This document shows positions 8,706 through 48,150 of a DNA stretch of 48,583 nt, in pieces. Position 1 is the stretch's first letter. Each line of letters starts with the position of its first letter. Below the pieces are notes generated by a model, which worked only from the letters and a program-made list of their open reading frames with translations, ran no database searches and had not been told where the DNA came from. Location of the stretch: IMG/VR virus record IMGVR_UViG_3300045988_178905, one strand, 5' to 3'. The translations under genes and the position numbers were made by a program. The stretch comes from a virus.

Positions 8706-9248
8706 CTATGCTTCCATTACCTCTGTAACAATTCGCTTTACCTTGTCAAACTGTTTATATACTCGTTTCTGTTTGATTCCGTGATTATCCGCTATTTCCT
8801 TTAGTGAATAACCTTCCACCTTGTCAGAAAATATTTTCTTTTGTTCTTCTGTCAATCCGTTTTCAATCTGCTTTACCATTGCCCTATATTCCAGATTAGA
8901 TGCTGTTTCCATTGTAGAATGATTAGAAATATTCATATCCATTGAATCTAAACTAATATCTGATCCGGCTTCTGTACTTCTCTTTTGTGCTTTCTGTTTT
9001 CTAAAGTGAACAAATACCGCCTGTTTCATATACATATAGGAAACCGCTTCAAAACTGCATTTCGCTTGTAATTGCGGATCATTCAAATACTTTTCTACTG
9101 ATAACAGAAAATCAAACACAACAATATCAAAAAATTCTTCTGCATCCAGTTTTGACTTCTTCAAAAAGTCCATGATTAGATGATAATTTTCTTCTGAAAA
9201 CTTGCGTTCTTCCCTTGTCAATGGTCTTAATTGCTCTTTGTTTTCCAT
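8706..9248 (-). CDS. Sigma-70 family (ECF-like) sigma factor-like protein (180 aa)
   Basis: C-terminal LTEEQKKIFSDKVEGYSLKEIADNHGIKQKRVYKQFDKVKRIV is a region-4 HTH. The N-terminal half is region-2-like. Confidence 0.75.
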   Translation of the reverse strand: MENKEQLRPLTREERKFSEENYHLIMDFLKKSKLDAEEFFDIVVFDFLLSVEKYLNDPQLQAKCSFEAVSYMYMKQAVFVHFRKQKAQKRSTEAGSDISLDSMDMNISNHSTMETASNLEYRAMVKQIENGLTEEQKKIFSDKVEGYSLKEIADNHGIKQKRVYKQFDKVKRIVTEVMEA

Positions 9249-9310
9249 GTGATAACCTTCTTTCTATTGGTGGCAAGTGTGCCATTTCTGACACACCGCC
9301 CAACTCCAAT

Positions 9311-10021
9311 TTACATATCAAGTAAATCTCTCCATTTGTGGTATTCATCAATGTTTCCAAAATACTTTGTATCATTGAATAATCTTGCCATAGCACAATT
9401 TCCTGTTCTTCTAAGTGTTAAAAGTCTAATAAGCTCTTTTATCTCTGCAAGTGTCCACTCTCTATACTCGTCTAATTCAATCCTAGCCTGTCTTGCAATC
9501 TCTGTATCTGTATAACCCTGTATTCTCATAGCAAGAACTATTTCAAGAAGTTCAGGCTCTGCATATCTGCCAACATTTGCAAACAAGTCACGCAAAAACT
9601 CTTTTTCAATTACATATGCTTCAACATTTTTTGTTTTATCAATCCAATATGCATCTAACGGATGTCCTGAAAAAGGATTATCGCCCTCTAATTCATAATC
9701 AAGACTAACAAAACCGCCCTCTGGCATACGCTTTTGTGTGTGATCTGCTCTATGCTTGCCATAAACCGCACGAGAAAGAACTTTTTCAGCAACCGCATAA
9801 AATGGATAGATATGTAACTCTTCTCTACTGCAATACTTCTTTACTGCGTTAAGATAAGGGATGACCAATTCGTCATACCAATCTTCTACTGGTAAATGAT
9901 TCCATCTCATAAACTGATATAAATAGTCGTGATGTTCTTCTGCAAACACTCTTTCTTCTACTGTCAAAGGTCTGTCGGTGTAATCTGCTTTCTGTCCTCT
10001 TCTCCATGTTTTTTCTGTCAT
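9311..10021 (-). CDS. Second sigma-factor-like HTH protein (236 aa)
   Basis: Trimmed to MTEKTWRRGQ (TAGGAGG RBS). C-terminal LLEIVLAMRIQGYTDTEIARQARIELDEY is region-4-like. Confidence 0.65.
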   Translation of the reverse strand: MTEKTWRRGQKADYTDRPLTVEERVFAEEHHDYLYQFMRWNHLPVEDWYDELVIPYLNAVKKYCSREELHIYPFYAVAEKVLSRAVYGKHRADHTQKRMPEGGFVSLDYELEGDNPFSGHPLDAYWIDKTKNVEAYVIEKEFLRDLFANVGRYAEPELLEIVLAMRIQGYTDTEIARQARIELDEYREWTLAEIKELIRLLTLRRTGNCAMARLFNDTKYFGNIDEYHKWRDLLDM

Positions 10022-10137
10022 AATGCTACCTCCTAAAATATGTATTTTGATTGATTGATTTTGTACGACTACTATTGAGCCGATAGGCAAGCGGAGGACT
10101 GAACCTCCCACGGCTGAACTGTCACCGCCTTAATTGA

Positions 10138-10963: not shown

Positions 10964-11476
10964 ATGAAATATTTTAAGAATGTAGAAACACTGGAAGAAT
11001 TAAGAAAACAGTACAAAGAGCTATTAAAGAAGTACCATCCCGACAACCCAAACGGATCTACAGAAGCAACGCAAGAAGTCAATGCTGAATATGATACATT
11101 ATTCAAGACATTAAAAGACAGACACGAACACGGAGCAAGCGACACCAACGACAACAAAACAGATTATAATAATATGAAGTATGATTTTTCAGAAGATGAA
11201 AAACTAAGGGAAGTATTACAGCATATTGTTACAATGGAAAATATCAATATTGAAATTGTAGGTTGTTGGATATGGATAGACGGCAACACATACGAACACA
11301 AAGACACTTTAAAGGCTTTAGGGTTCAAGTGGGCAAGAGAAAAAAAGAAGTGGTATTTTCATACAGAATCATTCAGAAAAAGAAGCCACAAAAAATTATC
11401 TATGGACGATATAAGAAACTACTATGGAAGTACAGAAGTAAAGACAGAGGAAACAAAGAGATTAAAACAAGCGTAA
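10964..11476 (+). CDS. J-domain (DnaJ-like) protein (170 aa)
   Basis: EELRKQYKELLKKYHPDNPNGSTEATQEVNAEYDTLFKTL with the HPD tripeptide. Confidence 0.85.
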   Translation: MKYFKNVETLEELRKQYKELLKKYHPDNPNGSTEATQEVNAEYDTLFKTLKDRHEHGASDTNDNKTDYNNMKYDFSEDEKLREVLQHIVTMENINIEIVGCWIWIDGNTYEHKDTLKALGFKWAREKKKWYFHTESFRKRSHKKLSMDDIRNYYGSTEVKTEETKRLKQA

Positions 11477-11537: not shown

Positions 11538-11840
11538 ATGAAAAAATCTATTGAAAAAATCGGAACTATTGCAACTATCGTTATTATGTCGGTATGCTCT
11601 TACATTGCAGGAACTACACAAGTAAAAACGGAAACAGTCACAAAGACTATTACAAAAGAGGTTGAAGTTATCCCCGATAATTATATATCACTTGATGATG
11701 TATGCGGTTGGTACTATGATAAGTACGACTATATTTGTTTTGAACTCGGAGACATTGGGAAACAGTTAGACAATCCAAACGGAAAAAGTTACAATGATAT
11801 TATTTCAGACTTGCCACACTTGACAGATTTAGAAGAATAA
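11538..11840 (+). CDS. N-terminally membrane-anchored small protein (100 aa)
   Basis: IGTIATIVIMSVCSYIAG hydrophobic span; AGGAG RBS. Confidence 0.65.
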   Translation: MKKSIEKIGTIATIVIMSVCSYIAGTTQVKTETVTKTITKEVEVIPDNYISLDDVCGWYYDKYDYICFELGDIGKQLDNPNGKSYNDIISDLPHLTDLEE

Positions 11841-11869
11841 AGCAATAACATAATATAATTATAACACAA

Positions 11870-11901
11870 GGGTGTAACCGATAAAGTTACACCCTATTTT
11901 T
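11870..11901 (+). terminator. Intrinsic terminator
   Basis: GGGTGTAAC-cgataaa-GTTACACCC followed by TATTTTT. Confidence 0.75.
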
Positions 11902-11934
11902 GTATGCTCTATTGATATTTTTTAATGTCATTAT

Positions 11935-12660
11935 ATCCTACTGGTTTAGTAGGTATTGTGTAGTCCAGGGTAGCAAAAACTAAAAAAGGGAATTGTTTTT
12001 CTCTGCCGCCCTGTAGTTGGTTCTTCTCGACACGGACTTGAAAAATTTACCCCTACGATATTTTCAATCCTAAAATCTGTCGCTTTGAAATGAACGGAAG
12101 TATTATTTATAAAACCTCTATTACGGAAGTGGGATTTACAACACTTCTATTCCCACCTAAAGGGAAAATTCCCCTAAGTGAAACTGTTCCACTTAGAAGA
12201 TAAAATTTTTCGCACACTTGTATGCGAAAGATTTTTATTCTTCAAGGTGTGTCCATTTGAACACAAGGCGTTTAAAGTTTTCGCCACTTCTGGCGGTATC
12301 TCATGGGGAACGAAATTTAGTTTCCTTCAACTATTGCAAATATGAAACATCTCTAAACCAACACTATCTGTTTCAGATAACAGCGCAAAATTGCGCTGTA
12401 CCACTGTGGACTAACCGCTTTTTCGGAATCTGAAATTCCGATTCATTCTTCCCCAGTTCCCCACGGAGAACTTACCCCATATCCTTAGAGAAAATCAATA
12501 GAAATCGCACCAAATCCGCTTCAAAATCCATCATAGATAACCTTGTTCGCCTACACAATTACAAAGCCGATTTGCCCTAAAAATCACTTATTTTCACAAA
12601 GGATAATAGCATATAATACAGGGAGGGGTACACTTAAACTATGCTATATTAAGTACCTAA
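11935..12660. ncRNA. ORF-free, hairpin-dense region; candidate large structured RNA (strand undetermined)
   Basis: No plausible CDS for ~0.75 kb between convergent genes. At least 10 local hairpins, e.g. 12126-12147, 12174-12196, 12208-12229, 12282-12295, 12366-12378, 12381-12398, 12423-12441. Possible long-range GGGGAA(12305)/TTCCCC(12449) pairing. Visibly GC-richer than the flanks. Confidence 0.35.
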
Positions 12661-12683
12661 CAGCAGCAGACGTACCAATAAAA

Positions 12684-13061
12684 TTACTCTTCCGTTTTCT
12701 TAAACGTCCAATATTTATCCTTAATCAAATACTCTCCATCCTCGTAAACAACATTATATCTGGACTTCTTCGTATCACCTTTATATTCATAATAAAAATA
12801 TCCCTTTTCTGGAACTAACACTATTTTAGATGGATCATCGACTTTATCTCCATTGCTCAAATATGCACTGTCGTTATCAATGGTGAAAACAAAATCATAT
12901 TCAGAAGCACCCGTTCTCCATATACCATTTATCACTTCTGACATTTCATCTTTACTCTGGAACTTAGCATTTTTATTGGATATTACCATAATCAAAATAC
13001 ATAGAAATAAGATTAAGGTCATCACAAAAAATGATATAATGATTGCCTTTTTATTTTTCAT
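12684..13061 (-). CDS. Membrane-anchored/secreted small protein (125 aa)
   Basis: N-terminal KKAIIISFFVMTLILFLCILIMVI anchor; GAGGAGG RBS. Confidence 0.7.
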   Translation of the reverse strand: MKNKKAIIISFFVMTLILFLCILIMVISNKNAKFQSKDEMSEVINGIWRTGASEYDFVFTIDNDSAYLSNGDKVDDPSKIVLVPEKGYFYYEYKGDTKKSRYNVVYEDGEYLIKDKYWTFKKTEE

Positions 13062-19158: not shown

Positions 19159-19487
19159 TTTCCTCCTTTTTATCGAATCAGAAGGTCAAGAATGGGTACG
19201 GCATAAATGACGCACCCCTAATAAACTGCTATATTCCACACATCTGTGGAAATATAATTAACCAGCTTATTTTTTAGCTCATTAAAACAACTCAAAGGAA
19301 TTATCCCTTCAGTCATATAAACTGCTATATGTAGCAGTCAAATTTATTCAATTTCTCATATTGGGAAATGTGCAGAATTGCACGTTAGATATTCTTGATC
19401 TCTGATACAGGCTTTCTTTTACTTCCTGCCTGTTGGGAAATATCCATACATTTGTTTAGAATCGGTGTATGTCTGCCGATTATCTCT

Positions 19488-19676
19488 TTATTCAACATAC
19501 CCAAGAATAATTTTAGCAATGCATTTTGCATTATGTTCATCTAAATCCTCGATTATTGCTTTGGCAAGATCGAGATTGAGATATCCTAATGTCATTCTTT
19601 CTTCTTCTGTTGGATCGTAATTATGTTCAAGGGCTGCATTGAATTTATTACAAGTTTCTATAATATTTTTAAACAT
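19488..19676 (-). CDS. Hypothetical protein (62 aa)
   Basis: ORF in operon. Confidence 0.55.
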   Translation of the reverse strand: MFKNIIETCNKFNAALEHNYDPTEEERMTLGYLNLDLAKAIIEDLDEHNAKCIAKIILGYVE

Positions 19677-38907: not shown

Positions 38908-39876
38908 CTACACATACTGTTCATGCAATTTTGCTATTTCCACATCCATTTCAGCTTCTGCTATTTCTCCACATTGGCACTTATCAACCACATCTTTCAT
39001 TTTTTTCAAAATATCCCTATTATGATTTAACTTATTGACAACATCATCTGTAACATAATGCGTCAAATCTCCACTACCATCACCATAAGATGTTCCAAAC
39101 AGAGTGTCCATCCAAAACATTGCATAATACCCATCTATGCTTCGCAGACTAAAATTTGACAAAATAAACATCTTTAATTTCAATTCATCATCTGTTTTGC
39201 AATCTTTTCTATGTTCCTTTTCTTGACAAGCATAATAGGCACGAATTTTCTTAATACCTAAATCTTTGCAAGCTCTTACTCTTTCATGTCCAGAAATAAT
39301 TGTATTATCTCTTGCAATCATAATTGGCTCATATATACCATATTTATCAACCGAATTTAAAAATGAAATCCAGTCCTTGCCTGTTCTTTTGAAGAAATAT
39401 TTATCATGTTGTGGTAATGGTTTTAAACAATCTACATCTATCTCAATATCTTCATAGTCTCTTACATAGTCGATAACACTATCTGTTTTGGTATGATCAG
39501 ATTCACCTTTAATTGCAGCTTTTAATTCTCTTGTTGACATTTCCTTTACATTATGTTCTGCAATAAAATTAGCTCTTTTATCTTCTGGCACATCCAATAA
39601 TAATCCCAATTTTGTTACTTCCAAATTGGAAATCGCTTGCGAATTTGAACCAAATTCTTTTGCAATTCTCATATAAATATTTGCTGTTCTTTGTGAAAAA
39701 TTAACTTTATCTCTTAGCCATGTTCCCCATTCTCCATGTGGTACTTTTTCTTTTGCTCTATTCAATTCATTACCAAGTTTAATGAGATTTTGTGCAGTCT
39801 CATTTTTAAGCCGGATTATTCTGTTTTCTATTGCTTTAAGTTCCAAATCATTGTTACATCTTACTTCATTATTCAT
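38908..39876 (-). CDS. DUF3102-like N-terminal domain fused to a ParB/Srx nuclease domain (322 aa)
   Basis: KLGNELNRAKEKVPHGEWGTWLRDKVNFSQRTANIYMRIAKEFG; YEPIMIARDNTIISGHERVRACKDLG. Confidence 0.8.
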   Translation of the reverse strand: MNNEVRCNNDLELKAIENRIIRLKNETAQNLIKLGNELNRAKEKVPHGEWGTWLRDKVNFSQRTANIYMRIAKEFGSNSQAISNLEVTKLGLLLDVPEDKRANFIAEHNVKEMSTRELKAAIKGESDHTKTDSVIDYVRDYEDIEIDVDCLKPLPQHDKYFFKRTGKDWISFLNSVDKYGIYEPIMIARDNTIISGHERVRACKDLGIKKIRAYYACQEKEHRKDCKTDDELKLKMFILSNFSLRSIDGYYAMFWMDTLFGTSYGDGSGDLTHYVTDDVVNKLNHNRDILKKMKDVVDKCQCGEIAEAEMDVEIAKLHEQYV

Positions 39877-41606: not shown

Positions 41607-41939
41607 TTACTCATACACAATTACTTCTACAGGTGTACACTCTTTCATAAGTTCATCCCATGTAACTTCAACAAATTTACCACCCTTATAGTCATAATTA
41701 GCTTCATCCAAATAGACAAAAATGCAGCAGTCCTTTACACTTTCATCAATAATTTTTCCATCAATCGGAGTACATAGCTTATATGCCTTTTCCCATTTCA
41801 TAGAACTTATCACTTCAAAGCTATGTGTTGTAATCCATATACCAAAAGGAACATCCAATAATCCGTGGTAATCTTTATCTGTATTGGAAAACGTTTCACC
41901 TACTCTGTAATATTTTTTCTCTGTAATTGCTTTACTCAT
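41607..41939 (-). CDS. Hypothetical protein (110 aa); frame stays open for 50 more codons past its TAA
   Basis: ORF with GGAAGGAGA RBS. See the finding on the 41457..41606 extension. Confidence 0.65.
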   Translation of the reverse strand: MSKAITEKKYYRVGETFSNTDKDYHGLLDVPFGIWITTHSFEVISSMKWEKAYKLCTPIDGKIIDESVKDCCIFVYLDEANYDYKGGKFVEVTWDELMKECTPVEVIVYE

Positions 41940-42186
41940 ATATATAATTCTCCTTCCATCAAGTGAAAAATTGTAAACTTATTATTCCGGTAAATAGTGA
42001 GTGTTTATTTCGGATGCCGCTAGGCAGCCGACATACTCTCTTTTTATCGAAAAGAATAATCAGCTTAATTCATATTTTGAGCCATTCAAGATACGCTCAA
42101 ATTAAGTATCTATAAGATATATTCTCTCGTTGAAAGATTTGTGTAGCCATAGCGGAACAAATCTTTTTTGTGCTGTAAAGCACCCA

Positions 42187-42531
42187 CTATTCAAGAAAGT
42201 AATATCCATTAGTAATAATTTCTCTTATCTGATCACATACTGCATTGGTAGGAATATTTTTATCCTTCACACTCTGCAATGCAGTTTTAATATCATCCAA
42301 TGACATTCTGTATTCTTTCATAAGAACATCAATAAAAGGTTGTCTGTATTCTATCAGCTTATCCAGTTCCAACTTATGATTGTTATAATTGGATGTTCTG
42401 TACTGCTTTTCCTTATAAGCAAGGTCATTGATTTTCTTCTCATGCTTTGCTATGCAATTTAATATGTACTCTTTTGTAAGAGTATTTGTATTCAATTTAT
42501 CTTCCATTTTTAATCTATAACTTCTATCCAT
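42187..42531 (-). CDS. Hypothetical protein (114 aa)
   Basis: ORF with AAGGAGA RBS. Confidence 0.65.
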   Translation of the reverse strand: MDRSYRLKMEDKLNTNTLTKEYILNCIAKHEKKINDLAYKEKQYRTSNYNNHKLELDKLIEYRQPFIDVLMKEYRMSLDDIKTALQSVKDKNIPTNAVCDQIREIITNGYYFLE

Positions 42532-42645
42532 GTCTTATCTCCTTAGTGGGTGTCTGCGTGGCAGCCACAAATGATGTTTGTTCCGTTCCTTGCGTCACTA
42601 CACAAAATCATTGATTCTCGTATGATTTTTATGTATTTTCAAAAA

Positions 42646-42703
42646 TTGGCACTTTATAATGCCATATAAAGGATTGTTTATATATCCCGTTTTAAAGTGC
42701 CAA
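42646..42703. terminator. Strong bidirectional intrinsic terminator
   Basis: Perfect 11-bp stem TTGGCACTTTA / TAAAGTGCCAA with a structured loop. It is flanked by an A5 run (42641-45) and a T5 run (42705-09). It follows the stop of the 511-aa gene. Confidence 0.75.
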
Positions 42704-42713
42704 CTTTTTATAA

Positions 42714-44249
42714 TCACTGGTCAAATACAAATAATTCATCAATATCTGAATTACTTTCCAGAAATTCTTCCATTGAAAATGTTCTATCCTTATGACCTAT
42801 CCTTATTAGTTCATCAGTCAAAATTCTCTGTGCATCTAAATATGTATCTGGTGGGTTCCACATTTTCTTTTTATGTGATTCAATTCTTGGAGTATCACCC
42901 CAATATTCTTCAATCAAATTTTTCATCTGCTGTTGATATTCTGCTTTATTTTTTTCATACAGGTCTTTAGCATTTGAATTTAGATAATCGACTACTTTCT
43001 TATTTAATAATTCCTTTTGTAGCTTCATTTCCAATTCTGGTAATGCCTCTTTAACTCCATCAAATGTATAAATCACTTTTATCTGCTTAAAGTAGTGATT
43101 CCATCCGTACTGCTGATACAATAAATCATTCACTTGTTGATAAAAATCTGCTTGTTGGAATCTGATAAAGACTTGGAACATTTTTTCATATCCCATAATG
43201 TTATGTAAGATGTGTCTTTCGACTTCAAGAATTTGCTTTTTCTGAAGATCAGTAGCTTCAAAATACTGTTCTTTACCTCTTTTATCTTTTGTGACAATAA
43301 CTGTCTGAATTTCATAAGTAATTAGTTTTCTATTTTTCAAACTATTTAATGCAGAAAAAAGAATCTGCTCTAATTTTTTATTACATCTTTGATAAAAGTG
43401 CCTAACTTCCCATGAGGTAATTCTATAATCGAGATTTTTTAATTTATTTTCTGGTGTTCTTCCATATTTATGACTTGCCATGCCTAACATTTCCCACCAG
43501 TTGCGTTTCGTAAATGTTCTTGTATAGCCTTCCTGTTTTGATAGGTACTGTAATAAAATCACTTCTATACACTGCACATAAATTGAATTATTACCCAGTT
43601 TGCGCTTATCTTCTTTCGTTAATGGAGTATCGTATATATCTGAAATAATAAATTTCTGTCCTGACTTTTCCCATTCAAAGTAACGTGCAAAATCTTCTAG
43701 TTGATATTTCTTTGATTTACCGCTTTTAACTTCCTGCCCTAGCAATTCACATAGCATTTTATAGTTTTTAACAGTCATACCAATTTCAAGTTTTGATATA
43801 TCAATACCACCTACAACATTTTGCGGTAGTAATAAGCTATCATCCTCTTCAAATCCTTTTATAAAATCCTTTTTCAATTCTTCAAGAGATTTAACCCATA
43901 CATTTTTTAGCTGTTCTTTATTCTGAATCTTTTTATTTTGGCTCAAAACATCGGCAATATTTATAGCAATAATCTTATCCAGCAAGGGATCTATGTCACA
44001 CGCATACTGTTTTAAGACGCTTTCTTCTATATCCATATCCTTATATTTATCAGCATTCATGATAATTTCTTTTGCATATGTGACTACTCTATTTGTATCT
44101 TCCTTCACTTCGTCAAGTGTTGGTAATTTTGTTATTCTTTCTGCTTCATCTGGTATAACAGATATATACTCTCTCCCATTTGAGACATAAAAGAATCTCT
44201 CCAATACCTTTGCTGTCTGATTTTTGTTACATGGATTCAGATAATTCAT
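42714..44249 (-). CDS. Hypothetical protein (511 aa); possibly N-terminally truncated by an in-frame TGA
   Basis: Long ORF; no motif recognised. The nearest GGAGG is 33 nt upstream of the ATG. Confidence 0.7.
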   Translation of the reverse strand: MNYLNPCNKNQTAKVLERFFYVSNGREYISVIPDEAERITKLPTLDEVKEDTNRVVTYAKEIIMNADKYKDMDIEESVLKQYACDIDPLLDKIIAINIADVLSQNKKIQNKEQLKNVWVKSLEELKKDFIKGFEEDDSLLLPQNVVGGIDISKLEIGMTVKNYKMLCELLGQEVKSGKSKKYQLEDFARYFEWEKSGQKFIISDIYDTPLTKEDKRKLGNNSIYVQCIEVILLQYLSKQEGYTRTFTKRNWWEMLGMASHKYGRTPENKLKNLDYRITSWEVRHFYQRCNKKLEQILFSALNSLKNRKLITYEIQTVIVTKDKRGKEQYFEATDLQKKQILEVERHILHNIMGYEKMFQVFIRFQQADFYQQVNDLLYQQYGWNHYFKQIKVIYTFDGVKEALPELEMKLQKELLNKKVVDYLNSNAKDLYEKNKAEYQQQMKNLIEEYWGDTPRIESHKKKMWNPPDTYLDAQRILTDELIRIGHKDRTFSMEEFLESNSDIDELFVFDQ

Positions 44250-44672
44250 ATAGTCTGTTCTTTCTTCTGTAATAATAACTCATTCCTCCAATTCTAATTT
44301 AATTAATGTAGGCATAATGCCATTTCTGACACTATGCCTGTCTATCCGTCCAATATGTATAACCATTATCTTCAATGGTATTGTGATTCCGTCAAATATG
44401 TAATCAGCATCTTCACTGATAATTGTTTTAATAAAAAAAGGGATATGTAAATCCGTTCTGAACTGTAACTATTCGCTTCAATTTATACAGACAAAGCATC
44501 AAAAATTTTTTCCTTTAACTGTTTTTTGACCTCATCACTTGCAACACCATTTTTAATATATCACAGGAGTTTTTTATCGATTTTCTCATCATTTCCAACT
44601 GTTCCATTCTCCCCAGTATACTGGGGATTTGCTGGAGATTAGACATTTCATTTATATGAATATTTATTTTTC

Positions 44673-44700
44673 TTGACATTTAAGAAAATGACTGTATAAT
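44673..44700 (+). promoter_or_regulatory. Consensus sigma-A promoter TTGACA-16nt-TATAAT
   Basis: TTGACA at 44673-44678 and TATAAT at 44695-44700, preceded by TG. Confidence 0.7.
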
Positions 44701-44857
44701 TAAATTAAAAAACCATAATTTTACAACAATCAAAATAAAACCAAATCAGAAAATAAATCAACTAAAACTAATTCAATACAACATTTTATTTTTATTACTT
44801 CTTTTAATATTTGTAACTGTCAACCTTACACCAATTTTCTGAAAGGTGGTGCTTCTT

Positions 44858-45013
44858 ATGGGAGCAATTTTGGGAGTTGTTTTTGCACTGACTTTATCAG
44901 TTATGGTTATTATTAGCATTATAACCATTTTGCATAAATGCTTAAATGATAAACGACATGATGTAAAAATAAGGACAAAATACTTTGATATTGAGATAAC
45001 TCAACATGATTAA
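44858..45013 (+). CDS. 51-aa hydrophobic peptide with a charged tail; candidate second type I toxin or small membrane protein
   Basis: MGAILGVVFALTLSVMVIIISIITILHKCLNDKRHDVKIRTKYFDIEITQHD. AAAGGTGGTG RBS. ~150-nt A-rich 5' UTR from the consensus promoter. Own terminator. Confidence 0.5.
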   Translation: MGAILGVVFALTLSVMVIISIITILHKCLNDKRHDVKIRTKYFDIEITQHD

Positions 45014-45020
45014 TGATATT

Positions 45021-45052
45021 AGGCAGCCGATAATCGGTTGCCTTTTTATTTT
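45021..45052 (+). terminator. Intrinsic terminator
   Basis: AGGCAGCCGA-taa-TCGGTTGCCT (the G-U pair is valid only on the plus strand) followed by TTTTTATTTT. Confidence 0.75.
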
Positions 45053-45186
45053 CGTCATAATTACTTCAATTAATATGTATTCATAAATAACCTCTTTTTC
45101 TTCTATATATAAGACACGAATGAGAAAGTATCTCATGAATTCCTTTATCAGTCCAACCGGCTGACCTCTACTATATTGTTCTCTCT

Positions 45187-47031: not shown

Positions 47032-48150
47032 TTACTTGCTAATTCTCTTTGCTCTTAACTTCTCTAATGCTGTCAATCCCTTTGGCTTATTTGCTGTAGA
47101 TACCGTCTGTTCCACTGTTGGGGTAGCGAAAATATCAATGTTCTTTCCTGTCCTAACCTCTGTTGTAGCCTTTTGCGAATTTTTGATAATGTCCGCTTCT
47201 TTTTGAATGCTCTCTGTCATTGCATCCACTCTACTGTACGGCATTGTCAGACCGCTAAGAATAATCACATTTTCCTCTGATTCTGACAGATAGCCGTGAA
47301 ACTCGGTTGGTGCAATTCCGATCTCTTTTCTAAGATCAGTCATATCAATTTTGCTTTCCTTTGCAGATACCGCTTCGGAGATACCCATTGTCGTAATGGT
47401 CTTATCTTCCCTCTTTGCAAAGATATTACTGTCACGATTCAGTACATCAATAATATTCGCTGTCGTTCCGTTGTTCTTATTGGCTCTTGTGATAATGGAA
47501 AATGATGGAGTTAAAATGCACGCTTCGATCTCGGCTAAATCCATGTTTCCATCCTGCGACTTATTATTGATGCAAAGAATGCTTGCAAATAATGAAGCAA
47601 ATGTGCTGTTAATCTTCATCTTCTCGGTTGCGTTGTTGTCCAGAATGTAGATACTTCCCATTCGTGGCTTCAATTCCTCGATCTCATAAAATGTCTGTCT
47701 TGCATTGTCTCTAATTTTTAACGATTCATTATCAGCCGGTAGTACCACGATCATTCCTACCTTGTAACCTTCATCAAGAAGAATTTCCGCAAGCTGTGGT
47801 GCGATTGCCGAACCGGTGCCTCCTCCTAATGATGTAGCAATGAATACAATCGAATCTTCTATAATATAGCTGTGAAGTTCATCCAGTATCGTATCAATGC
47901 TTTCTGCTAAATCCTGTACACCGTTTTCCCGGTTACAAGCTGCCCCCTTTGAATTGTTCATATGAATCTTGTGGGATAACTTGACAGATGCCAAATCCTC
48001 TGTACTGGTGTTGATGCCTACAAATGATGTATTGGCTTTATTACCGCCTAAATCATTCACGCTTTCTTCAATCCTTGCCGTGATCGAACCGCCAGCCTGT
48101 CCACATCCAATAACTGTGATCTTCAATCTCTCGTTGATGTTTTTATTCAT
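47032..48150 (-). CDS. tubZ: TubZ/PhuZ-like tubulin-family GTPase (372 aa)
   Basis: T1 loop ITVIGCGQAGGSI. Tubulin signature SLGGGTGSAIAP. Typical size, with an extended basic C-terminal tail (KPKGLTALEKLRAKRISK). Confidence 0.85.
   Translation of the reverse strand: MNKNINERLKITVIGCGQAGGSITARIEESVNDLGGNKANTSFVGINTSTEDLASVKLSHKIHMNNSKGAACNRENGVQDLAESIDTILDELHSYIIEDSIVFIATSLGGGTGSAIAPQLAEILLDEGYKVGMIVVLPADNESLKIRDNARQTFYEIEELKPRMGSIYILDNNATEKMKINSTFASLFASILCINNKSQDGNMDLAEIEACILTPSFSIITRANKNNGTTANIIDVLNRDSNIFAKREDKTITTMGISEAVSAKESKIDMTDLRKEIGIAPTEFHGYLSESEENVIILSGLTMPYSRVDAMTESIQKEADIIKNSQKATTEVRTGKNIDIFATPTVEQTVSTANKPKGLTALEKLRAKRISK

Follow-up and report, generated by a model that had tools for sequence, protein, structure and literature searches.

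Positions 12066-12471 of the phage genome analysed here may well hold an optional stack of independent stem-loops of the terminator type, comparable to the promoter-early stem-loop (PeSL) cassettes of T4-like phages; weighing what sequence comparison brings to each side, we find about as much reason to accept this reading as to doubt it. Judged by the same comparisons, the stack occupies a slot that borders the hypervariable accessory-gene region in a family of temperate phages found in Lachnospiraceae (Roseburia, Coprococcus, Eubacterium). Each stem-loop would act by itself and not as part of one large folded RNA. The role of each would be to end transcription or to protect the 3' end of an RNA, insulating convergent transcription units, while the short palindromes would also give breakpoints for recombination that shuffles modules. 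The array would have accumulated at a hot spot between convergent units, its elements being traded between the spacers of related phages. We infer both the step from 'stem-loop' to terminator or 3'-end protector and, from the positions of breakpoints alone, the promotion of recombination by palindromes. What speaks for this reading is that single hairpins have been lost, exchanged or inverted among relatives and are used again in a second intergenic region, and that other hairpin-rich spacers exist in the window.

A gap between convergent genes

The window, that is, the whole stretch of 48,583 nucleotides that was analysed, is a temperate phage genome of about 48.6 kb with nearly all of its genes on the - strand. 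It encodes two tyrosine integrases, a tape-measure-like protein of 2440 aa, HNH proteins, two ECF-like sigma factors, a ParB-like protein and TubZ. The TubZ-like and ParB-like genes (47032-48150 and 38908-39876) suggest maintenance of the plasmid type, which contrasts with the two tyrosine integrases and with the relatives that are integrated in contigs of 115-645 kb. The two sigma factor genes are adjacent (8706-10111), 2-3 kb upstream of the locus, and no matching promoter motif was identified.

A small + strand unit, made of the gene for a J-domain (DnaJ-like) protein (10964-11476) and of a 100-aa ORF (11538-11840), converges on - strand genes. The gap considered here, 11841-12683, separates the end of the 100-aa ORF (+, 11840) from that of a 125-aa ORF (-, 12684). 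The original prediction placed it between convergent genes, after a terminator; the flanks are confirmed, and so is the terminator, at 11869-11901. In 18 related contigs, too, the gene callers placed no gene in the gap. The ORFs that can be read in it (37-91 aa) are indeed implausible, with no Pfam match and with frames that are not kept among relatives. The gap had further been taken for the longest non-coding stretch of the genome. The longest stretch of the window without an ORF of at least 80 aa is 44250-45186, which with 937 nt exceeds the gap and has no Rfam match at gathering score. The J-domain protein itself combines an N-terminal J domain with a C-terminal part that weakly matches DUF5710 and the ZorC 'EH signature'.

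A search with a motif from the gap matches genomes of Lachnospiraceae (Roseburia, Coprococcus, Eubacterium sp. MSJ-13). The motif is also found in human-gut contigs of up to 645 kb, and the elements in such contigs are therefore integrated prophages. Comparison of the gap by blastn with isolated phages and plasmids gave no match; the closest isolated phages show just 24-26% identity to a 621-aa protein of this phage, the gene of which is considered below. The tRNA/tmRNA scan found none, and PADLOC, applied to the neighbouring genes, found no defence system.

Four pieces, one of them structured

The gap is a composite of four pieces rather than one element: the terminator of the DnaJ-like unit, a conserved unstructured block of about 130 nt, an optional array of about 406 nt and a conserved right core of about 190 nt. 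The features are listed here with the gene that follows them.

11869-11901, no strand assigned: intrinsic terminator, bidirectional-looking, ending the + strand DnaJ-like/100-aa unit (two-strand terminator scan)
11937-11953, no strand assigned: short hairpin CCTACTGGTTTAGTAGG, between terminator and block (folds; partly kept in relatives)
11968-12050, + strand: conserved block of about 85 nt (nhmmer, profile of 122 distinct variants)
12066-12471, no strand assigned: accessory mosaic stem-loop array (z -5.8/-5.6; missing in short forms)
12472-12660, no strand assigned: conserved right core (alignment of 66 distinct copies; z +1.6/+0.5)
12684-13061, - strand: first gene of the hypervariable - strand accessory region, 125 aa, without family match

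The terminator reads AGGGTGTAAC...GTTACACCCT followed by ATTTTTGT, and its stem is kept in relatives. As a whole, the stretch folds far better than its shuffled versions (z -6.7 on the + strand, -4.0 on the - strand). The ORF-free, hairpin-dense region originally drawn at 11935-12660 is thus real, but its excess of structure is confined to 12066-12471 (local-fold z -5.8/-5.6 on the two strands). That neither strand stands out is what one expects of near-perfect palindromes in DNA. Neither 11935-12064 (z -1.3/-2.0) nor 12472-12683 (z +1.6/+0.5) is unusual in its folding; twelve control segments of the same size, taken from the mostly coding 13-47 kb of the window, have a mean z of -0.2/-1.1.

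Other parts of the genome are as rich in structure. The region at 41.9-42.7 kb is denser in hairpins (sliding z -7.4/-6.1), being a partly coding region with terminators, and that at 19.2-19.7 kb is similarly structured (z -4.5). The former, 41900-42720, is the most hairpin-dense part of the genome, where a plausible 114-aa gene is flanked by long terminator-like stem-loops, one of them with a 16-bp stem around 42640-42710. As to base composition, the G+C content of the gap is higher than that of its flanks, as had been remarked (0.38-0.39 vs 0.31-0.34); the rise is small, and the same level is also reached elsewhere, at 9.5-10.5 kb and 29-32 kb.

An insertion hot spot next to the block

Relatives were collected through look-ups of exact proteins and through scans of viral, genome and metagenome collections. 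The neighbouring 125-aa gene is carried by about 1170 assembly blocks. The comparison set comprises 200 loci (designated below by L and a number), with 156 distinct versions of the region; its alignments are dominated by close relatives. The latter keep the entire gap at 83-100% identity, which is no better than the conservation of the flanking genes (mostly 97-100% identical). Among more distant relatives the gap is modular. The hot spot is located at about 12065, directly after the block, where the slot is empty, or protein-coding, or filled with a mosaic array of hairpins. Many relatives lack the 406 nt between block and right core, so that the two adjoin directly, and the array is absent from many viral contigs of 40-57 kb. 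The insertion point lies between the imperfect direct repeats TTTTACCTCTCCGATAT and TTTTTACCCTCATATCC (12045-12065; 12472-12484), which are adjacent in empty forms such as L040 and flank the cargo in filled forms.

Hairpin arrays are the commonest content of the slot (35 of about 49 distinct non-empty slots). They make one large family of 35 distinct variants, 129-1840 nt long (z -6.1/-4.9), the members of which have common sub-blocks in differing combinations. A recurrent breakpoint of these mosaics, at about 166-169 (reference position), falls within the 3' arm of hairpin 12202-12235. Replacement modules unrelated to the array of the window are hairpin-dense as well (z -4.5/-8.7 in L028, -2.5/-4.3 in L046). 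The remaining contents are protein-coding families, with ORFs of 179-206 aa and of 156 aa on the - strand and, on the + strand, a Big_2 secreted protein of 214-227 aa and small ORFs that have ribosome-binding sites. On the right side of the slot, the gene at the position of the 125-aa ORF varies among relatives, and the set of - strand genes changes from one phage to another (Big_2 proteins, an Ltp-type lipoprotein, zinc-ribbon membrane proteins), so that the gap borders a hot spot of accessory genes. A recombination locus had been named as a fallback in the original prediction, and this comes close to what the comparisons display, namely a hot spot of insertion and replacement.

That relatives hold intact genes at the very same position makes one think of a decayed protein-coding gene. 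We find this scarcely credible: tblastn of the cargo proteins against the gap reveals no similarity beyond the shared flanks, no ORF of the gap has a Pfam match, indels are not multiples of three, and the density of hairpins is far above that of the coding controls, which is unexpected for a gene in decay.

Hairpins as units

The ten hairpins named at the outset all appear in the folds. The array is now read as holding the following hairpins.

12126-12147: array hairpin
12150-12166: array hairpin
12174-12196: array hairpin
12202-12235: array hairpin, terminator-like, with a T-run after the stem
12248-12265: array hairpin
12282-12295: array hairpin
12305-12327: array hairpin
12365-12380: array hairpin
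12381-12398: array hairpin
12423-12441: array hairpin

They all differ from one another. The duplication of ACGGAAGT that had been observed is present, and this sequence is the head of a tandem repeat of 29 nt, 12094-12122/12123-12151, the copies of which are 79% identical. The stem TCGGAAT/ATTCCGA is kept with four different loops. Variants of 12381-12398 comprise CAGCGCA/TGCGCTG, GAGCGAA/TTCGCTG, which is compensatory, and AGCGTAA/TTGCGTT, with two G-U pairs; in the family of 12248-12265 the outermost pair is swapped from G-C to C-G. Because stems stay while loops change, with single compensatory changes, the hairpins are units in their own right. One of them, 12202-12235, is inverted in L145 (slot positions 46-81), where 35 nt are 97% identical to the opposite strand; on sequence, this inversion is apparently palindrome-mediated.

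Three hairpins, 12248-12265, 12305-12327 and 12381-12398, recur in relatives in quite another place, the spacer upstream of the 621-aa gene. This spacer is built of a hairpin, then TTTATTTC or ATTC, then TTGACC...AGGAGG-ATG. Copies of 12248-12265 and 12305-12327 directly precede TTTATTTC-TTGACC...AGGAGG-ATG and so stand where a terminator stem-loop would stand before a promoter, and with TTTATTTC behind them they have the form of intrinsic terminators. The copy of 12381-12398 lies in this spacer too, at a greater distance upstream. The hairpin before the promoter of this gene varies from phage to phage, and the window has yet another. The spacer of the window (19159-19530) is itself hairpin-rich, with z about -4.5. 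The stem-loops in front of the -35 element TTGACC and those of the array come from one common pool (L062:7100-7200, L017:800-935, L129:1100-1200). Within the array there is only a degenerate look-alike of this promoter, TTTTTATTCTTCAAGG, read from the sequence after 12202-12235.

Intrinsic terminators, defined as a stem-loop followed by a T-run, are found on the + strand at 11869-11901 and 12202-12243 and, in weak form, on the - strand at 12200-12170 and 12229-12208; most other stems of the array do not have this form. This speaks against reading the array as a stack of terminator-type units. A canonical T-run is present only at 12202-12235 within the array and at 11869-11901 outside it, and the other stems, which are devoid of it, would be poor intrinsic terminators. 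Furthermore, at least ten hairpins far exceed the needs of termination, and a few changes to G-U pairs (12381-12398 in L145; 12305-12327) would fit an RNA of the + strand.

Hairpins that appear in two different spacers across a family of phages, in mosaic combinations, one of them being inverted in a relative, might also be small mobile or repeated palindromic elements, of the REP/BIME or miniature inverted-repeat-like kind, building up wherever spacers of the phages, and perhaps of their hosts, tolerate them. A perfect TCGGAAT...ATTCCGA hairpin even within a coding-looking region of relatives would agree with this view. Yet no hairpin of the array has a second copy in the 48.6-kb window, nearly all copies across 1.6 Mb of fetched loci fall in the slot itself, and the surroundings of the locus showed neither a transposase nor a RAYT-like gene. 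We regard such an origin of the array as quite unlikely. A perfect hairpin TCGGAATCTGGTATTCCGA, with the same stem as 12423-12441, lies in coding-looking regions of relatives at L066:8256, L116:11642, L143:7966 and L120:1289.

One large RNA or many small hairpins

The original prediction proposed for this region a large RNA of ornate fold, in the manner of ROOL or GOLLD or of a new class. The covariance models of Rfam (4227 models, Rfam 15), among them ROOL, GOLLD, OLE, HEARO and raiA, gave no match in the whole window at gathering score. With permissive filters, 11700-12800 gave eight matches with E values of 1.5-8.8, far below gathering, none of them to a family of large RNAs. For the array, RNAalifold returns a folding energy of -61.0 kcal/mol with a covariation term of +1.06 kcal/mol and 77 predicted pairs. 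It flags three pairs, two of which depend on the poorly aligned row of L028 alone, and its long-range pairs never vary. Among 13 array-carrying relatives, a shallow set, the changes at Watson-Crick pairs amount to a single compensatory one vs 12 that break the pair, with seven of the G-U type on the + strand and seven on the - strand. Stems vary as much as loops (37/196 vs 41/233 in the same 13 relatives). Individual G-U cases favour the + strand in the 12381-12398 variant of L145 (two pairs) and in 12305-12327, and the - strand in 12174-12196 and 12202-12235 of the window, as read from the sequence. The absence of covariation is weak negative evidence because the relatives are so close (83-100% identity).

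A long-range pairing of GGGGAA at 12305 with TTCCCC at 12449 had been proposed to enclose part of the structure. It meets with local competition: GGGGAAC pairs with GTTTCC in hairpin 12305-12327, and this hairpin recurs free-standing elsewhere in relatives. The absence of covariation, this local hairpin and the lack of a consensus in the right core leave a single large fold without support; the block has no consensus fold either, and the array is accessory and mosaic. As far as sequence goes, we thus find no support for one large folded RNA, which is absence of evidence rather than proof.

An RNA of a looser kind has to be weighed as well. The array might be an accessory non-coding cargo, transcribed rightwards from the block into a multi-hairpin RNA of 200-600 nt that would act in trans, for instance by titrating, as a decoy or sponge, an RNA-binding protein or nuclease of the host or of a rival phage, or into several small RNAs. 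The candidate promoter would be the weak sigma-A-like TTGGTT-N17/18-AAAAAT (12017-12046), or AAAC-N17-TTTCT further upstream, and a first unit would end at the terminator 12202-12243. It fits this scenario that + strand genes with good ribosome-binding sites follow the block in a number of loci (L077, L078, L102, L178, L175, L105, L144, L093), that the boxes of the block, set apart by variable spacers of fixed length, look like a promoter, that arrays are the commonest content of the slot, with replacement modules likewise hairpin-dense, and that stems are kept while loops vary, with a few compensatory or G-U changes. It fits poorly with the neighbouring genes: the first real gene beyond the block is on the - strand in 85 of 122 loci, ending within about 70-115 nt of the block start, so that transcription from a rightward promoter would be antisense in most cases. 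The two candidate promoters are weak (3/6 in the -35) and were missed by a consensus scan. Neither an Rfam match nor covariation was found, changes of the G-U type are equal on the two strands, and no common loop or stem motif points to one protein partner. We take this RNA cargo to be possible, if doubtful.

A more specific version strikes us as rather unlikely. There the array would be a non-coding 'moron', a multi-hairpin RNA expressed from the block in lysogens and selected for its content in hairpins and not for its sequence, for instance as a decoy for an RNA-binding protein or nuclease of the host or of a competitor; the block, the AAATC repeats and the oriented GGGTAC..TTAAAC motifs described below would form a platform that captures and expresses cargo modules.

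Relation to known systems

The closest parallel that we can offer for a stack of terminator-type stem-loops is that of the PeSLs, described from T4-like phages as regulatory stem-loop modules in hypervariable ('hyperplastic') regions, thought to be points of genetic exchange (Arbiol, Comeau and Krisch 2010, PMC2839356; Comeau et al. 2014, PMC4122927). The likeness is in stem-loop modules that lie in a hypervariable region at the borders of indels or replacements between close relatives, a situation that is also that of the array; moreover, the spacer upstream of the 621-aa gene has the order stem-loop, T-run, then the -35 element TTGACC. As presented there, each PeSL is by contrast one composite unit that includes a conserved T4 early promoter; PeSLs flank ORFs and are found in virulent myoviruses of Gram-negative hosts, whereas the phages considered here are temperate and belong to Lachnospiraceae. 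Here at least ten different hairpins are stacked with no ORFs between them and mostly with no adjacent promoter, and recombination at hairpins is deduced from breakpoint positions and from the reuse of modules. A literature search for arrays of stem-loops or morons in prophages of Lachnospiraceae returned nothing specific.

The morons of temperate (lambdoid) phages are accessory genes with their own promoter and terminator, lodged between conserved genes. The slot resembles them in that it is at the edge of a hypervariable accessory region and is empty or filled; it differs in that the content of an array slot encodes no protein. The REPs of enterobacteria belong to one sequence family, with hundreds of repeats per genome. 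REPs and BIMEs share with the array the form of mosaic clusters of short imperfect palindromes, extragenic and often between convergent genes, while the hairpins of the array are all different and single-copy in the window. With ROOL, GOLLD, OLE, HEARO and raiA the array has in common a large non-coding stretch in a mobile element of Firmicutes; it departs from them in having no covariation-supported multi-stem junctions or long-range helices, and in being accessory and mosaic where they have a conserved architecture.

If the reading as a stack of independent stem-loops is true, we are witnessing ordinary plasticity of phage genomes at a fine scale: palindromic modules of the terminator type pile up, and are traded, at an accessory hot spot of abundant human-gut prophages. 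Density of hairpins alone would then be no marker of a large structured RNA.

The conserved block and the right core

By-products of this analysis may prove of more value than the array itself, first of all the widespread block of about 85 nt that marks the border of the hypervariable cargo region. Among the products of this region are Big_2 surface proteins and a lipoprotein of the Ltp type, a kind known for superinfection exclusion. The block, the phased AAATC repeats and the oriented motif are possible handles for finding accessory genes in gut viromes.

In the block, conserved boxes alternate with spacers that vary in sequence but not in length (profile of 122 distinct variants), some positions appearing conserved by necessity owing to the way in which the loci were retrieved. 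The block begins with GGGTAGCAAAAAC (11968-11980), followed by 15 variable nt, TTTTTCTC (11996-12003), 8 variable nt and TGTAGTTGGTT (12012-12022); then come 17-18 nt, AAAAAT (12041-12046) and the leader TTTACCCCTACGATATTTT (to 12065). It is present in about 150 related prophage loci of Lachnospiraceae (for example L040:1284-1366, L043:3692-3769, L030:3967-4048), with one copy per locus according to nhmmer, always downstream of the DnaJ-like gene, which adjoins it in every locus, and in the same orientation. It is the sole part of the gap that is kept where the J-domain protein is but 60-68% identical. No consensus fold was found for it (consensus energy about -3 kcal/mol), and its motif has no further occurrence within the window. 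The block may be promoter-like or protein-binding DNA, or else a boundary of recombination.

Several candidates were discarded along the way. A role of the block as a genome-wide promoter for the ECF-like sigma factors of the phage was set aside, the motif being nowhere else in the window. A helix GGGTGGC/GCCGCCC in the block, which seems to covary with compensatory changes in L040 and L042, is absent in the distant L049, L056 and L047. A small ORF running across block and right core in empty-slot forms does not keep its frame in seven variants. In the right core, the partners of a long inverted repeat, 12480-12495/12590-12605, change register and recombine independently, and RNAalifold (66 copies) finds nothing there.

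Indeed, the right core has no consensus structure on either strand in the 66 distinct copies examined with RNAalifold. A candidate promoter of the sigma-A type on its - strand, TTGTGT-N17-TATGAT, lies in a sequence where conservation is uniform across the core and not specific to the hexamers. AAATC repeats start at 12492, 12502, 12512 and 12524 (spacing 10, 10, 12). A triple of AAATC with a 10-nt phase occurs once in the window and in none of 100 shuffles; similar AAATC(C) repeats directly follow the block in the distant relatives L178, L105 and L144. The spacing of about 10-12 nt corresponds to one helical turn, as in an iteron-like or phased-A-tract arrangement.

An origin had been the other fallback of the original prediction, and one could more broadly consider an origin of replication, a partition site or a packaging site that works as DNA. 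Repeats phased at about one helical turn, which the right core contains and which in distant relatives follow the block, non-coding DNA that is conserved with no RNA fold, a neighbouring J-domain protein with a possibly DNA-binding C-terminal part and a phage that encodes TubZ and a ParB-like protein would all suit such a site. The array, by contrast, is dispensable: missing in full-length relatives, as in many of the 40-57 kb viral contigs, it cannot be an essential cis site. The GC skew gives no signal of an origin, being monotonic and following gene orientation, and the TubZ operon is 35 kb away. For the region we consider a site of this sort very unlikely. It could hold for the block, which is always present, and for the right core, which is often present, only.

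Finally, the right core ends with a motif resembling box A, GGGTACACTTAAAC (12626-12639), which sits in a hairpin, GGTAC..CTTAA/TTAAGTACC (12627-12657). This oriented motif, GGGTAC.CTTAAAC (12626-12639), resembles the first box of the block, and it recurs downstream of the block on the same strand in 91 of 119 loci, vs 13 on the reverse strand. Second and third copies are seen in L026, L040, L073 and L083, and in some loci the motif brackets single cargo genes, in the manner of a cassette boundary.
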